NCBI GenBank assembly: GCA_038062375.1
Contig: JBBTXG010000005.1
Coordinates: 51,273-115,272, forward strand
Source: Patescibacteria group bacterium
GTDB lineage: Bacteria > Patescibacteriota > Minisyncoccia > Minisyncoccales > UBA10102
Direction of reading: 5' to 3'
Length of the DNA stretch: 64,000 nt
Part shown: positions 9,349 to 15,014 of the stretch, piece after piece
Position numbering within the stretch: position 1 is the stretch's first letter
Layout of the letters: every line of letters begins with the position of its first letter
The notes under the pieces: generated by a model
The model's input: the letters and a program-made list of their open reading frames with translations, nothing else
Databases searched by the model: none
Told to the model about the DNA's origin: nothing
Translations under genes and position numbers: made by a program

Positions 9349-9378
9349 AATACAAAGGAGGCGCCTTTGCGCGCCTCC
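9349..9378 (-). terminator. intrinsic terminator
   Basis: Minus strand GGAGGCGC-gcaaag-GCGCCTCC followed by TTTGTATT. Confidence 0.7.
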
Positions 9379-9536
9379 CCCCTCACGTAGGGTCTACTTG
9401 GGTTTATTTCCGTCCATTCGATATGCCAGCTTCGTTCATGCTTTTAGGATTTCCGTGGTCCTCCTCAAAGATTACGAAGCCAGATTGTTAGAAAGGCTAT
9501 ATGTGCAAAGGCGACGAACCCTTGCGTAGCCTTTCT
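9349..9536 (-). ncRNA. unclassified structured RNA or 5' leader of the HIT gene (~188 nt)
   Basis: Bounded by a perfect-consensus promoter and an intrinsic terminator. Nested helices GAAAGGCUA/UAGCCUUUC and GCAAGGG/CCUUUGC. A 10-bp helix CUGGCUUCGU/ACGAAGCUGG has G-U pairs that work only on the minus strand. No ORF. Confidence 0.5.
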
Positions 9537-9542
9537 ATTCCT

Positions 9543-9571
9543 ATTATATCCCCTCCCATCGTACTTGTCAA
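9543..9571 (-). promoter_or_regulatory. consensus sigma70 promoter
   Basis: Minus strand TTGACA-17 nt-TATAAT, an exact consensus. Confidence 0.65.
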
Positions 9572-9686: not shown

Positions 9687-9852
9687 GATGGGGGGAGTTC
9701 CACAAAATTATTTCTCTCTTCGCTGGATTACATCAACGAGCTGCTCGAGAGCATTTCGATGGGGAGTTAGACCAAGTGGAACCAAATTTTTCTTTGCTCT
9801 TCTGATATACATTTGCGCGAGCGCAAGCGCTCTTTCTTTCGCATGTATTTTC
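9687..9852. repeat. left copy of the direct repeat (duplicated 3' end of the polyprenyl synthase gene)
   Basis: 9700..9840 matches 13278..13418 with 3 mismatches in 141 nt. Weaker similarity continues on both flanks. Confidence 0.9.
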
Positions 9853-9900: not shown

Positions 9901-10115
9901 TTACTTTATTTCTAGAACCCATTTGCGCTTCATCACGTAGTTCCATCCATCGTCTGGAGAGAATACCGTACGAAGGCTTCCTACCTCGTCAAAGGCAAGA
10001 AAGACATTTTTATTGGTATCGTAGAAACCGAAGCGATCAAGTTCCGTTGATCCCTCTAAATGTATCCAATGAGTCTGACAGCCCCACCCTCGGTCTTCAT
10101 GATCTGGAGAGCGCC
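9901..10115 (-). pseudogene. decayed orphan toxin C-terminal cassette
   Basis: 10059..10115 is 53/57 identical to 10894..10950 inside the toxin gene and encodes ALQIMKTEGGAVRLIGYI followed by TAG. A shifted frame then reads ...LDRFGFYDTNKNVFLAFDEVGSLRTVFSPDDGWNYVMKRKWVLEIK*, which parallels the resident toxin tail. There is no start codon. Confidence 0.65.
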
Positions 10116-10135
10116 TTGTGGGCTAGGCTTGTACA

Positions 10136-10176
10136 GAAGAAAACAAAACAAAAGGGCCAGCGCGTTTGCACTGGCC
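10136..10176 (-). terminator. intrinsic terminator of the toxin-immunity operon
   Basis: Minus strand GGCCAG-tgcaaacgcg-CTGGCC followed by CTTTTGTTTTGTTTTCTTC. Confidence 0.6.
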
Positions 10177-10205: not shown

Positions 10206-10529
10206 CTACTCCTTTTGGTAGTCTTTCAGTTGTACTCCGATTGTACGGAGCTGTTCTTCGAGGTTCCAATTTTCGGGTTTCAAATCGAACTTATCCAATT
10301 TAATTCCCTTTTGAACCCATTCATCTGCATGCCATGGAGTTCCTTCCTGGAGCCATCTACGACGATTTATTTCTGCGCTTTCTGGTGTACAATCCTGATA
10401 CCCAGACTCTGCACCACAGCAAGGACAAATCTCGTACTCAGGATATCCTGATTCATCGTAGAATGCGTCTGAATTGCGATACCCACAGACACGGCAGATA
10501 TACTTTTTTTTATTGTTCACATTCTCCAT
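10206..10529 (-). CDS. Cys-rich CPCC-type zinc-ribbon protein, candidate immunity protein
   Basis: 107 aa, starting 4 nt after the toxin stop codon. CRVCGY...EICPCCGAESGYQD arrangement (CxxC + CPCC). Confidence 0.6.
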   Translation of the reverse strand: MENVNNKKKYICRVCGYRNSDAFYDESGYPEYEICPCCGAESGYQDCTPESAEINRRRWLQEGTPWHADEWVQKGIKLDKFDLKPENWNLEEQLRTIGVQLKDYQKE

Positions 10530-10533
10530 ACTC

Positions 10534-12969
10534 CTATTGCCCTAAGAAGTAGTCGTAGTTCGTGGGATAGCCATGGATGGCAGGATCTGGCTTGTAGAAT
10601 GTTTTAATTCTTCCATCTGCTGCTTTTATTCCGAAGTGTTCCGTTACGGTGTCAAACCGAATGATATCTCCATTGGCACGCGTTTTGGTCAGAAGCGTAC
10701 CACCAGCAGAACGGTTCATGAACATCTTTCCAAGCCATTCATATTCAACCTCGCTTTGAACTCCCAACCTTGCTCCATGGTCTTTGAAATGCTGACTCAA
10801 CCGTATAGGATCAAAGCCCTTGTGGTGTATGTACTGTAACACCTCCTCGCCATGTTTGTCTACTATTGTGAGTATCTTCGTGCCGTACTTGGCAATGTAT
10901 CCAACGAGTCTGACTGCCCCGCCCTCGGTCTTCATGATCTGGAGAGCACCTGCCGCGGCCTTGATGACCCGAGGCGCACTCTTGAGGGTTCGGATCGAGA
11001 TTCCACCTATGCCGCCAGTGCAACTGGTTTCCAAGCAGCCCCAGATTGCTTCAAGGAATTCCTGTCTGAAGCGCTCTTCCTCGGTAAGACACTCATTCGG
11101 GCCGCAGGGTCGTATCTCTCCTCCTGCGAAGCGTGGCTGGAGAGCTCGGGCAAGGCGGATGTTGGCTGTGAGTGAGTTGAGCTTGGTTCTGGTGCTTGAG
11201 CCCACAAAGCCAGTTCCTTGGGTGAGACCAAGAGGAGTCAGGATTTCCATGGTATACTTCTCTTGGAATCGGATAACGGCATTTTCGGTCAAGGGGCCAA
11301 AGTAGTCGGTCTCCTGTCCTGGAGAGCCTGGTCCTTCGATTGCTACTGCGGTATCCAAGTAGGTATTGAGAACGATCTGGAGGCACCGCACATCCTCTCC
11401 GCCCATTTCTCGCTTGAGATCAGTGTGGAATACGCAGTCTTCCGCAAGTGCGTAGTTGGACCATTGCGTCTTTGCGACAAGAGCTTGTTGATCTATTGGC
11501 TTGGGAGAACGGATAGGGTTGAGCCCCAGCGCTTTTGCTTCTTCTTGGCTAAGGTTTGTTTCTCTGCCTGCTGGTCCGAGTTCCGGATGAGAACTTAAGC
11601 CTCCTTTGTGCAGAGCTTCTTGAATGGCAATGAGAGTTCCGTCTCGAAGGGGAGATTGTGCAGAACCAAGATCTGCGATGTTGAATCTTGCTATACTTTC
11701 TTCCGAAACTCCAAAGATCTTTGCCAGCTCTGATCGGTAAACGGCAAACCCGCTTTTGTTGAGCAGCCAGTTCGTGTAGCTTGAAATGGATTGATTGTTG
11801 ATTTGGCCTGTCCCATCGGTGTGTCCGAGAAATACCGTACCTCCTGGATTGACTTCTACTCCACCTCCGATGATGCCAAAGCTCCTGGCGAGACTCGAGG
11901 TTTCCGCCCGTGCGTCGGAAAAGGCGATACCTTCATTGAATTTCTTGTGTACCACTCCGTTCACGAAGATTTCGCTTCCAGCTCCGCCGCTCGCATACTC
12001 ATAGCGGAGAATCACCACGTGGGTTGCTTTGCGGACAATGTAGTCGAACTGCCTTCCGAGACGGATAAACGTTTTTGCATTGGGTCCGCTATCAGATTCC
12101 GAGAATATCGCGCAATCCGCAGGAATGTCAAACTCGAACTTCTTGGCTGGAATACCGCCGTACGCTGGATTGTAATGAACGATGCGCTCGGGCTTCCCAG
12201 GCCTACATCCCTGTTTTGCAGCTTCGAGAGCCTGCTGTTCCTCTATTGCTTTCTGGATTTCTTCAACCAGTACCCAGATTTCGTTGATCTGCCGTTGAAT
12301 CTCTTGCTCAACAGGTATGGGCGTAGCAGTTGGTGTCGGAGCAGGCGTAGGAGTAGGAGTCAGAGGCACTGGTGTTGAGGTTGGAGTCTGTTGGTCTGCT
12401 GCTCCATACACCATAACCTCTACCCATGGGTTTCCTGGTTCGTCTATCCCAGCATCAGAGTTGCCATTGCTCCATACTCTGATATATCGATGGGATTGGC
12501 TAGGAGAGAGGATGATCTCCTTTCCTTCCAAGAAAGACTCAAGTTCGAGAGCTTGAACTATGGATGTCCAGGTCACGTTGTCTGAAGAACCCTCTACCTG
12601 TACTTGATGTAAGATCCTTTTCTTCCCTTGTTGGTACAAAGGATAGAGAACTATCTTGCAAGCAAGGTATGCCTTTCCTAGATCAATGGTAAATGATTGT
12701 TTGCCTGTTCCTACAAGGGTGTACTCTCCGGAGTCTTTGGGGATGAGTCCATTGGTGAGAATGGAGATCTCATTCGCTTCAATCTTTGCCTGTGTGGAGA
12801 CTGGTGCGTCTTTTGCGATGTTGGGTGTGGCTCCATCTCCGCATTGTTCTCCCTGCGCTGTTCCTTGAGAGAGCACAAGGGAAATGGCAAGGAGGCTCGC
12901 AAGGATGAGTATGCTTCCCAAGAGGATACAAGGTTTGCCTGCTTGAATGATCCTGCTGATCAAATACAT
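10534..12969 (-). CDS. Sec-exported multidomain polymorphic-toxin-like protein (discoidin-like + PT linker + PG_binding_1-like + variable C-terminal module)
   Basis: ATG at 12969 preceded by AAAGGAGtgcacaaa; the track ORF opens 9 nt upstream at a GTG. N-terminal hydrophobic signal or anchor. F5/8-type-C-like segment (SFTIDLGKAYL...VEGSSDNVTWTSIV...HRYIRVW...VEVMVYG). Linker TPTSTPVPLTPTPTPAPTPTATP. PG-binding-like GEDVRCLQIVLN...YFGPLTENAVIRFQEKY. Junction AAGALQIMKTEGGAVRLVGYI, then a ~110-aa tail. Confidence 0.75.
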   Translation of the reverse strand: MYLISRIIQAGKPCILLGSILILASLLAISLVLSQGTAQGEQCGDGATPNIAKDAPVSTQAKIEANEISILTNGLIPKDSGEYTLVGTGKQSFTIDLGKAYLACKIVLYPLYQQGKKRILHQVQVEGSSDNVTWTSIVQALELESFLEGKEIILSPSQSHRYIRVWSNGNSDAGIDEPGNPWVEVMVYGAADQQTPTSTPVPLTPTPTPAPTPTATPIPVEQEIQRQINEIWVLVEEIQKAIEEQQALEAAKQGCRPGKPERIVHYNPAYGGIPAKKFEFDIPADCAIFSESDSGPNAKTFIRLGRQFDYIVRKATHVVILRYEYASGGAGSEIFVNGVVHKKFNEGIAFSDARAETSSLARSFGIIGGGVEVNPGGTVFLGHTDGTGQINNQSISSYTNWLLNKSGFAVYRSELAKIFGVSEESIARFNIADLGSAQSPLRDGTLIAIQEALHKGGLSSHPELGPAGRETNLSQEEAKALGLNPIRSPKPIDQQALVAKTQWSNYALAEDCVFHTDLKREMGGEDVRCLQIVLNTYLDTAVAIEGPGSPGQETDYFGPLTENAVIRFQEKYTMEILTPLGLTQGTGFVGSSTRTKLNSLTANIRLARALQPRFAGGEIRPCGPNECLTEEERFRQEFLEAIWGCLETSCTGGIGGISIRTLKSAPRVIKAAAGALQIMKTEGGAVRLVGYIAKYGTKILTIVDKHGEEVLQYIHHKGFDPIRLSQHFKDHGARLGVQSEVEYEWLGKMFMNRSAGGTLLTKTRANGDIIRFDTVTEHFGIKAADGRIKTFYKPDPAIHGYPTNYDYFLGQ

Positions 12970-13267: not shown

Positions 13268-13430
13268 GATGGAGTTTCCACAAAATTACTTCTCTCTTCG
13301 CTGGATTACATCGGCGAGCTGCTCGAGAGCATTTCGATGGGGAGTTAGACCAAGTGGAACCAAATTTTTCTTTGCTCTTCTGATATACATTTGCGCGAGC
13401 GCAAGCGCTCTTTCTTTCCCATGAGTTTTC
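13268..13430. repeat. right copy of the direct repeat (functional 3' end of the polyprenyl synthase gene)
   Basis: See the left copy. Offset between copies is 3578 nt. Confidence 0.9.
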
Positions 13431-14296
13431 TGTATATATGAGCTGACCCTTTTTACATCTGAATTTGTTATAACCCTCTTGGTCAAAATTCTTCTCACCT
13501 CCGTCCGTTTTTCAAAAGGTAATTCTTGGAGCGCAAAAAATATCAGAATGTTTCCGAGTTTCCGTTCGCGAATATCTTGTCCTAATGGCTTTCCAAACTC
13601 TTGAGTGCCATAGATATCTAAGATGTCGTCGGTAATCTGAAATGCAATCCCTACATTTCTGCCGTATTGCTTTAACGCCAAAATTTTTCGCCTTGGCGCT
13701 TTTGGCATCAAAGCTCCAATCTCACAGGAAGATTCAAACAAAAACGCGGTTTTCTTTTCTGCCATACCCAGATAGTCTTGCAGGGTTATTTTTCCAAAAC
13801 GATGAGTTGTTGCATATGGCTCATCAACTCTCCCGCTTTGTTCAAAAAGAATATCCAAAATTTCTCCCTCTACAATTTTCTTGATGGTCCTGGCAAAGAT
13901 TCTCGCAATGAGCTGCGGCTTGGAAGTTCTCGCTGCAGCTTCCAATAAAGAGGCTCCGTAATCCATTCCCACGCATTCTGCAAACGATCTTCCAAACTTT
14001 CGCCATGTGGTAAGCTTTCCCCTTCGCTTGTCGCTATGGTCAATGATGTCATCAATGATCAAACTATACGTATGGAGAATCTCCAAGCCCGCGGCGGCCT
14101 CCAGTACATCTTGAACTTTTCCTCCACACGCAAAACAACAAAGTATTGCCAGGCAAGGCCGCAGGCGCTTTCCTCCTGTCTCAATCTGATAGAAGAGAAG
14201 TTTCCTTGTTTTGTTCTCTGCTCCGAGCGCGAGGAGTTTCTTTATTACGGGATCAACTTTTCTTGCAATATGTTGAAAGTTCGCATCGAGATCCAT
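13286..14296 (-). CDS. polyprenyl (geranylgeranyl/farnesyl-type) diphosphate synthase
   Basis: ATG MDLDANFQ... lies 7 nt after the uppS stop; the longer track ORF overlaps uppS. Two Asp-rich motifs, IIDDIIDHSDKRRG and FQITDDILD. Confidence 0.9.
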   Translation of the reverse strand: MDLDANFQHIARKVDPVIKKLLALGAENKTRKLLFYQIETGGKRLRPCLAILCCFACGGKVQDVLEAAAGLEILHTYSLIIDDIIDHSDKRRGKLTTWRKFGRSFAECVGMDYGASLLEAAARTSKPQLIARIFARTIKKIVEGEILDILFEQSGRVDEPYATTHRFGKITLQDYLGMAEKKTAFLFESSCEIGALMPKAPRRKILALKQYGRNVGIAFQITDDILDIYGTQEFGKPLGQDIRERKLGNILIFFALQELPFEKRTEVRRILTKRVITNSDVKRVSSYIQKTHGKERALALAQMYIRRAKKNLVPLGLTPHRNALEQLADVIQRREK

Positions 14297-14303
14297 AAAA
14301 AAG

Positions 14304-15014
14304 CTATTTCCCAAATCTTCGGTGTCTGGCGGCATATACCTCCAGCGCATCGTCGAGATCCTGTTTGGTAAAATCAGGCCAATATTTCGAACAGAAGTAG
14401 AGTTCCGCGTATGCTGCCTGCCACAGTACAAAATTAGAAAATCGTTTTTCTCCCCCTGCGCGGATGACCAGATCCGGGTCTGGAAGGCCAACAGTTGAGA
14501 GATACTGACTGAAAACTTCCTCGGTGACTTGTTCGGGAGAGATTCCAGCTTTGATAATTTTTTGAACAGCCTGCACAATATCCCACCTTCCGCCGTAGCT
14601 TACGGCAAGGTTCAAAAAAAGATTTGTATTCTTTTCCGTTCTCTCTTCTACTTGATGAATTACTTTCTGAAGAGATTCCGGCAGCCGTTCTCTTTGACCG
14701 ACTACTCGAATTTTCACGCCGAGGCCGTGGAGTTCAGACTCTCTCTTCACAAAACCTTCTTGAAGACCTTTTTCGAGCAGCGCCATAAGATATGACACCT
14801 CTTCTTGAGGCCTCTTCCAATTTTCCGTGGAAAATCCAAAAGCGGTAACTATTTTGATTCCTCGTTCCCTACACCACTCGCAAAATTGAATCATCTTTGT
14901 ATGCCCTGCCTTATGCCCTTGGAAAGTATCAATTCCTTTTTCTTTTGCCCATCTCCGGTTTCCATCTGGGAATAATACGATGTGGTTTGGAATAAAAGAC
15001 GATAATTCAGTCAT
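14304..15014 (-). CDS. uppS: undecaprenyl (isoprenyl) diphosphate synthase
   Basis: 236 aa. HIVLFPDGNRRWAKEKG and RAGGEKRFSNFVLWQAAYAELYF. Confidence 0.95.
   Translation of the reverse strand: MTELSSFIPNHIVLFPDGNRRWAKEKGIDTFQGHKAGHTKMIQFCEWCRERGIKIVTAFGFSTENWKRPQEEVSYLMALLEKGLQEGFVKRESELHGLGVKIRVVGQRERLPESLQKVIHQVEERTEKNTNLFLNLAVSYGGRWDIVQAVQKIIKAGISPEQVTEEVFSQYLSTVGLPDPDLVIRAGGEKRFSNFVLWQAAYAELYFCSKYWPDFTKQDLDDALEVYAARHRRFGK

Follow-up and report, generated by a model that had tools for sequence, protein, structure and literature searches.

A predicted Sec-exported toxin with a colicin-D-like RNase domain and a zinc-ribbon immunity partner in a groundwater CPR-type genome

Little is known about the means by which ultra-small members of the Candidate Phyla Radiation (CPR) in groundwater fight neighbouring cells or exploit them, and a gene pair in a Patescibacteria group bacterium raises the question of whether one such means is a wall-associated toxin made together with its own inhibitor. 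We analysed 64,000 nt of contig JBBTXG010000005.1 (assembly GCA_038062375.1, positions 51,273 to 115,272; hereafter the window, numbered from its first nucleotide), in which two minus-strand genes lie end to end: one for an 811-aa secreted protein of polymorphic-toxin type (10534..12969; from the open reading frame (ORF) list and Pfam) and one for a 107-aa protein with the cysteine pattern of a zinc ribbon (10206..10529). The larger ORF starts with an ATG at 12969 and ends at 10534, and a GTG three codons upstream would extend its product to 814 aa. Exactly 4 nt (GAGT) separate its TAG stop from the ATG of the smaller ORF, an AGGAG ahead of the smaller ORF overlaps that stop codon, and an intrinsic terminator follows the pair (10145..10176, minus strand; a 9-bp stem with 7 G-C pairs, then a T-run). 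An annotation made earlier from the window itself (the original prediction) had described both ORFs, their 4-nt spacing and the terminator, and we found all of them at these minus-strand positions. With good confidence we predict that the locus encodes a Sec-exported, wall-associated protein that delivers a colicin-D-like RNase, and that a zinc-ribbon immunity protein neutralises this RNase in the producing cell.

The toxin domain and its immunity partner

The toxin module occupies residues 702-811 (10537..10866, minus strand) and comprises a IVDKHGEEVLQYI lead-in followed by the putative colicin-D-like RNase domain. An exhaustive HMMER search of 1.84 billion representative proteins recovered 1,217 clusters related to this tail at E ≤ 1e-3, 300 of them at E ≤ 1e-10. 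Among the best 150 of the 1,217 clusters, the match lay at or within a few residues of the C-terminus in proteins of 90-1,937 residues. Pfam annotation of 150 full-length relatives identified PT-HINT in 11 and RHS repeats in 5, whereas others carried DUF637, PT-VENN or Fil_haemagg (CdiA-type), PAAR, WXG100_2, LysM or PG_binding_1. Because the tail recurs in C-terminal position on unrelated scaffolds (PT-HINT, Rhs, CdiA, PAAR and WXG100-like proteins), the C-terminal ~110 aa is, judged from sequence comparison, a genuine polymorphic-toxin domain, which bears out the earlier designation of the tail as a toxin. The tail itself matched no Pfam or NCBIfam family (Pfam down to E ≤ 10), and among PHROGs the C-terminus of a phage portal family matched it. 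A word-index search returned 2 matches with the tail alone and 420 with the family alignment.

Searched against the Protein Data Bank (PDB), the tail alone matched a single chain, 8EY4_A (phmmer E 2.4e-6, residues 727-799), and a profile built from database relatives without 8EY4 recovered the same chain at E 1.6e-23. The entry is titled 'Contact-dependent growth inhibition toxin-immunity protein complex from E. coli O32:H37'. An AlphaFold model of the tail, built on a 106-relative alignment (predicted local distance difference test score (pLDDT) 89.8), shows helices followed by a four-stranded antiparallel sheet. Foldseek comparison of this model with the PDB again placed 8EY4_A at the top (template-modelling (TM) score 0.83, 29% identity), followed by the colicin D tRNase entries 5ZNM, 1TFO, 1TFK and 1V74 (probability 1.0, TM 0.55-0.64). 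The catalytic class of the tail had been held to be beyond assignment by eye; by model and Foldseek, the tail is a predicted colicin-D-like, metal-independent RNase of the BECR fold and belongs to the same family as the 8EY4 toxin domain. Two other matches to the tail profile were set aside as artefacts: engineered protein G B1 variants (6NL8, 8UG0), matched by chance through HFKQHANDLGV at E~5e-4, and an ADAMTS13 construct, matched through its ENLYFQS tag (a TEV site).

Conservation within the family points to a plausible active site. In the family alignment, H727, H731 and Y743 are invariant or nearly so, and R764, T776, T790 and H799 are nearly invariant; K793 is invariant among close relatives, and the window protein keeps all of these residues. 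For Tox-ColD, the signature published by Zhang et al. 2012 is [KH]K, Hxx[ED], [ST] and [TS]xxK (PMC3482391), and the family pattern HFxxHGx[DE]FG … T … TxxK would fit it. H731 and T790xxK793 are present in the window protein, with Arg at residue 734, where most of the family has Asp or Glu. H727 and H731 are likely to be the catalytic histidines.

The 107-aa protein carries a CxxC at residues 12-15 and a CPCC at residues 35-38 (C12, C15, C35 and C38), together with tryptophans at positions 59, 66 and 88. With a 7-sequence alignment we retrieved 58 genome loci that contain a tail relative, drawn from Proteobacteria, Actinobacteria, Acidobacteria, Planctomycetes, Chloroflexi, Cyanobacteria, Bacteroidetes and CPR. 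In 54 of these 58 unrelated genomes, the tail is adjoined by an ORF of 80-137 aa that bears the pattern CxxC…C[PDS]xCG. Its start falls between 28 nt ahead of the point where the tail match ends and 21 nt beyond it; the commonest start across these 54 loci is 7 nt ahead of that point, where the ORF overlaps the toxin gene's end. Four further loci (L005, L006, L068 and L069) likewise have the partner downstream of the tail homologue, and BLASTP matched the 107-aa protein to the partner from one of them at 6e-16. Across 39 aligned immunity sequences, the invariant positions are four Cys, one Gly and one Trp, and a C-terminal half of the form W…G..W…P..W..Q is conserved. Because this adjacency is near-universal, the assignment of the 107-aa protein as the cognate immunity-type partner of the tail is well supported, in keeping with the original prediction. 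At one of the loci, in Trinickia fusca (L067, 3263-3519), the immunity-type gene is frameshifted into two ORFs, and two others (L048 and L054) have no such gene.

The partner had also been described as a CPCC Cys-rich protein, which holds for its CxxC and CPCC motifs but not for membership of the Pfam family Cys_rich_CPCC (PF14206): the 107-aa protein scored 12.6 bits against a cut-off of 24.5 (E 0.12), and 5 of the 39 family members matched this model weakly (best E 1e-4). A link to PDB entry 8EY3 ('Cys_rich_CPCC domain-containing protein') was considered and rejected, the window protein reaching it at E 6.6 and the family profile and two members giving no match. Because the immunity profile misses 8EY3, we claim neither homology to 8EY3 nor an 8EY3/8EY4 partnership. 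Searched against PDB chains, the zinc-ribbon family profile found no convincing match, and a single-sequence AlphaFold model of the 107-aa protein (pLDDT 53.5) was too poor for a meaningful fold search.

Hundreds of tail relatives are stand-alone proteins of ~100 aa that have no export signal and sit next to an immunity-type gene. Such pairs raise the alternative that the tail and the 107-aa gene form an intracellular toxin-antitoxin or addiction module that stabilises the DNA islet carrying them, with the fusion to an adhesin incidental and the large protein serving mainly in adhesion or wall association. One stand-alone pair lies inside a sarcosine-oxidase operon, and the direct repeats that flank the islet in the window would make its loss by recombination possible. 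In the window, however, the domain ends a protein that begins with a predicted export signal and so would leave the cytoplasm, and the same domain ends proteins with established delivery domains (CdiA-type, Rhs, PAAR, PT-HINT and WXG100-like). The stand-alone copies are also of the kind that PMC3482391 describes as spare cassettes typical of polymorphic-toxin loci, and no PADLOC defence model matched. We consider an addiction module very unlikely and continue to treat the tail as the toxin domain of an exported protein. In the sarcosine-oxidase gene cluster (L006, 2354-3077), the zinc-ribbon partner of the stand-alone tail homologue was left uncalled in the source annotation.

Scaffold and delivery

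The body of the 811-aa protein, encoded throughout on the minus strand, has the parts expected of a secreted, surface-bound protein. Its sole strongly hydrophobic segment by hydropathy, residues 14-33, follows basic residues and falls within a predicted Sec signal peptide or signal anchor (residues 1-~40; 12850..12969), in which AQG/EQ is, by eye, a possible cleavage site. Next comes an F5/8 type C (discoidin) carbohydrate-binding domain (residues ~89-170; 12460..12705), which the Pfam model F5_F8_type_C detects at residues 90-170 just above its cut-off (28.5 versus 28.2 bits, E 1.8e-6) and which shares 30% identity with its counterpart in a Wildermuthbacteria protein. A Pro/Thr-rich linker, read from the sequence (residues ~192-219; 12313..12396) and with counterparts in all close relatives, leads to a coiled-coil-like start and then ~250 residues without a family (residues ~220-498; 11476..12312); this stretch of about 280 residues had no match in Pfam, NCBIfam or the PDB. 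A PG_binding_1 peptidoglycan-binding module follows (residues 524-573; 11251..11400; Pfam 25.4 bits against a cut-off of 23), which a PHROG endolysin match widens to residues 499-601. The pre-toxin region (residues ~602-701; 10867..11166) contains two CxxxxC pairs (C622/C627 and C645/C650) and a degenerate AKYGTKILT motif, and is shorter than those of relatives by ~25-45 residues. Hydropathy and Pfam agree with the order of parts originally read for this protein, from the N-terminal signal or anchor through the discoidin domain, Pro/Thr linker, ~300 aa without a family and PG_binding_1 to the Cys-containing pre-toxin stretch. Pfam likewise found none of the Rhs/YD, LXG, haemagglutinin, type VI or VII secretion system (T6SS/T7SS) or other secretion-system markers that the 811-aa protein had been said to lack.

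A metagenome scan with the PG_binding_1 module returned 80 surface proteins (L071-L150) that share 56-66% identity with it, GSPGxET insertion included. In many large surface proteins of this set the module either follows directly on the signal peptide or forms the very C-terminus, and neither the tail nor a comparable C-terminal module is present at any of the 80 loci. From this distribution the module looks like a general means of anchoring CPR-type surface proteins to the wall, one not specific to toxins.

In the mechanism that we propose, the N-terminal signal or anchor would direct the 811-aa protein into the general Sec pathway for export, and the PG_binding_1 module would hold it at the cell surface or wall, where the discoidin domain may contact glycans. 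After release and entry, the last ~90 residues would act as an RNase domain that cleaves tRNA or other RNA in a neighbouring cell; the 107-aa protein, made from the same transcript, would bind and neutralise the toxin domain in the producer. Secretion systems of types V, VI and VII are expected to be missing from CPR bacteria.

The neighbouring cell could also be the host bacterium of an episymbiotic CPR cell, struck for example by translation arrest at the contact site, and not a competing relative. The samples are 0.1 and 0.2 µm groundwater fractions and the closest cassette comes from a Ca. Wildermuthbacteria genome, two observations from which episymbiont status of the source organism is a plausible guess; peptidoglycan-binding (PGB) or LysM modules and the discoidin domain could, moreover, bind a foreign wall or glycan. 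A cognate immunity gene, however, is the signature of a toxin able to hit kin or self, and the PGB module, being a generic CPR wall anchor found at N- or C-termini, more likely binds the producer's own wall. We regard a toxin aimed at the host as unlikely.

Several observations count against the exported, wall-associated RNase toxin that we favour. With respect to catalysis, R734 replaces the acidic residue of Hxx[DE] in the window protein and its closest relatives, the Pfam Colicin_D model gives no match to the tail (E ≤ 10), and the sequence similarity between the tail and colicin D reaches only E~0.4, which is not significant. With respect to delivery, the long hydrophobic core could serve as an uncleaved membrane anchor, and the many stand-alone ~100-aa relatives with an immunity gene indicate that the tail module can exist outside secreted toxins. 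Finally, a full-length word-index search of a 5.8-billion-protein collection for the same body, with or without another tail, found only the protein itself and domain-level matches, in a search insensitive enough to miss four of the closest relatives (P0006-P0009); with no same-body, different-tail protein found, classical C-terminal polymorphism on the 811-aa scaffold appears to lack an example.

Cassette boundaries and nested repeats

The closest relatives (P0006-P0011) are 56-64% identical to the window protein over the matched C-terminal stretch (HMMER) and share its build: a signal-like N-terminus, variable N-terminal domains, Pro/Thr linkers, a coiled coil, PG_binding_1 (LysM in one) and a ~100-aa pre-toxin region that ends in LKLAKxVDKHGxEVLQYI, followed by the tail. 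R/L at position 734 is common to five intact relatives. In the genome of a groundwater Ca. Wildermuthbacteria member from a different site (locus L010), a 1,023-aa protein with a beta-propeller and LysM carries the same lead-in and tail. Its immunity gene also starts 4 nt after the toxin stop, and its genomic context differs from that of the window. DNA identity between the two loci is ~70% from IVDKHG (~10870) to the end of the immunity gene and 31-40% in the flanks, and the sequences are identical around the toxin/immunity gene junction (CAATAGGAGTATGGA). Because the unit is this much more similar than its flanks on a different scaffold, the toxin gene module plus the immunity gene is, from this alignment, a cassette common to different scaffolds.

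The module boundary shared with relatives is IVDKHG, about 10 codons downstream of a 58-nt direct repeat. The original prediction had instead placed a conserved junction at GALQIMKTEGGAVRL(V/I)GYI, but this GGAVRL-containing stretch belongs to the 58-nt repeat, which is internal to the locus, and is conserved in no relative. Copy A (10894-10951, minus strand; encoding GALQIMKTEGGAVRLVGYI) lies inside the 811-aa gene, and copy B (10059-10116, minus strand) is a junction scar; what had been taken for an 'orphan tip' is this second copy, only 19 codons long and running straight into TAG. The two copies are 93% identical (shuffled sequence gave no matches) and enclose 777 nt in which AKYGTKILT, the cassette and the terminator lie. 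Were the copies to recombine, the cassette would be lost and a scaffold protein ending …GYI would remain. AKYGTKILT itself (residues 693-701, 10867-10893; AKYGTKILTI with the next Ile) resembles the DKYGTEVLQYI lead-in of relatives and precedes the real lead-in, like the seam of an imprecise module swap.

A second, outer pair of direct repeats, 155 nt long and 96% identical, brackets the whole 3.4-kb toxin-immunity islet. The right copy (13276..13430, minus strand) is the true 3' end of a polyprenyl synthase gene (13286..14578, PF00348), covering the last ~46 codons, the stop and 12 nt, and the left copy (9698..9852, minus strand) is an orphaned duplicate of that end. No integrase or transposase gene lies between the 155-nt repeats. 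We infer that the nested repeats would fit acquisition by single-crossover integration of circular DNA, because such events would leave nested insertions flanked by duplicated target sequence. Every contig with the toxin gene or the HIT gene is broken at the 155-nt repeat, which makes these contigs uninformative about islet-free variants. In a broader version of this picture, the CPR scaffold group (Sec signal, variable binding domain, PGB/LysM anchor and LKLAKxVDKHG lead-in) may display a colicin-D-like RNase across the episymbiotic interface into the host or rival epibionts by an undescribed entry route, and its cassettes may move without a dedicated recombinase, looping out and re-entering by single crossover at short direct repeats; we think this speculative and, taken as a whole, unlikely.

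Some of the same features could instead mark the cassette as a decaying remnant with a catalytically dead toxin: Arg takes the place of the acidic residue in the putative Hxx[DE] motif, the pre-toxin region is short by ~25-45 residues and carries a degenerate duplicate motif, and a junction scar lies downstream. Yet the two ORFs are uninterrupted and have the same sequence on 9 contigs drawn from several samples, and all invariant family residues are kept. The R/L substitution in five intact relatives argues for a group feature and not a lesion, and the immunity gene retains its AGGAG and terminator. Decay is extremely improbable in our assessment, and we retain the prediction of a functional RNase toxin with its immunity protein.

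The 9 contigs that carry the exact 811-aa protein derive from Hainich groundwater assemblies (well H51, 0.1 and 0.2 µm fractions) and Logan assemblies, and the full-length ones show the same neighbours as the window, namely housekeeping genes, with polyprenyl synthase and HIT directly flanking the islet. Between the immunity gene's end and the HIT gene's start lie 920 nt in the window (10206-9286) and 919 nt in a contig of ERZ1292643 (L151, 4082-5001), so the two differ by a 1-nt intergenic indel. No second copy of the tail or immunity gene occurs elsewhere in the 64-kb window, which has no rRNA; Rfam and NCBIfam scans returned nothing relevant. G+C content is 50.5% in the body of the large gene, 44.5% in the cassette and 45.2% in the window. 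A perfect 12/12 sigma-70 consensus (TTGACA, 17 nt, TATAAT; 9543-9571, minus strand) lies ~190-260 nt upstream of the HIT-family gene, and a G+C-rich hairpin (~9362-9385) sits between the two in a leader without an Rfam match.

Comparison with known systems

The toxin-immunity reading of this locus is correct, but the kind of system has been described since 2012, and neither 'undescribed system' nor 'unusual scaffold', as the locus had been called, holds up. Zhang et al. 2012 catalogue signal-peptide-only (Sec/type II secretion system (T2SS)) export as one class of polymorphic toxins and list LysM, discoidin and PGB among the adhesion domains that these toxins carry (PMC3482391). Like members of that class, the window protein has a putative signal peptide or anchor, domains that bind carbohydrate or peptidoglycan, a toxin at its C-terminus and an immunity gene downstream. 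It differs in its setting, the survey naming Firmicutes, Actinobacteria, Proteobacteria and Bacteroidetes for these adhesion domains (PMC3482391), whereas groundwater CPR-type genomes are the source of the window protein and its nearest relatives, and its group has a pre-toxin lead-in of its own, LKLAKxVDKHGxEVLQYI. What is modestly new is this CPR-type groundwater setting, a widespread toxin/immunity family for which a structure is deposited although neither Pfam nor NCBIfam models it, and the nested repeats around the cassette. The locus offers a concrete, clonable candidate weapon consisting of a 110-aa RNase domain and a 107-aa inhibitor, and the nested direct repeats illustrate cleanly a way in which toxin cassettes may be captured. 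Defining both the toxin and the immunity families (about 1,200 clusters across many phyla) would improve the annotation of many genomes.

Closest in the toxin domain is the CdiA toxin of E. coli O32:H37 (8EY4 chain A, 'PT-VENN domain-containing protein'), a member of the same family as the tail, although the 8EY4 chain diverges after 'FKPE' and does not have the DPxxHGxPTNxDYF end. That toxin is delivered by a type V (CdiB/CdiA) route, whereas the window protein has no two-partner secretion (TPS) domain, haemagglutinin repeat or VENN domain by Pfam, and its neighbours are housekeeping genes. We found no publication on the activity of the 8EY4 toxin or the tail family. The tail shares its fold with the colicin D tRNase (Tox-ColD, BECR) by Foldseek, and its residue layout appears similar under our putative mapping. 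Colicin D enters E. coli through outer-membrane receptors. Its inhibitor, in its structures, is ImmD, whereas the window partner is a zinc ribbon; for Tox-ColD, Imm64 is listed (PMC3482391).

On the immunity side, PF14206 (Cys_rich_CPCC) shares the zinc-ribbon-like CxxC…CPCC motif, and the immunity family has an extra W…G..W…P..W..Q C-terminal half. The ABP systems of Gram-positive bacteria (AbpT/AbpP/AbpI; PMC12582261) resemble the window pair, as predicted here, in their Sec signal peptide, C-terminal BECR-type RNase with a histidine pair and downstream immunity gene; what defines them is an N-terminal BetaH domain together with a secreted serine protease that is always present alongside (PMC12582261), whereas the window pair adjoins no protease gene and gave no BetaH match, with no BetaH model among those searched. 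PMC6031116 mentions in passing an Rhs-type toxin of Saccharibacteria that contains a galactose-binding domain and has an immunity gene next to it.

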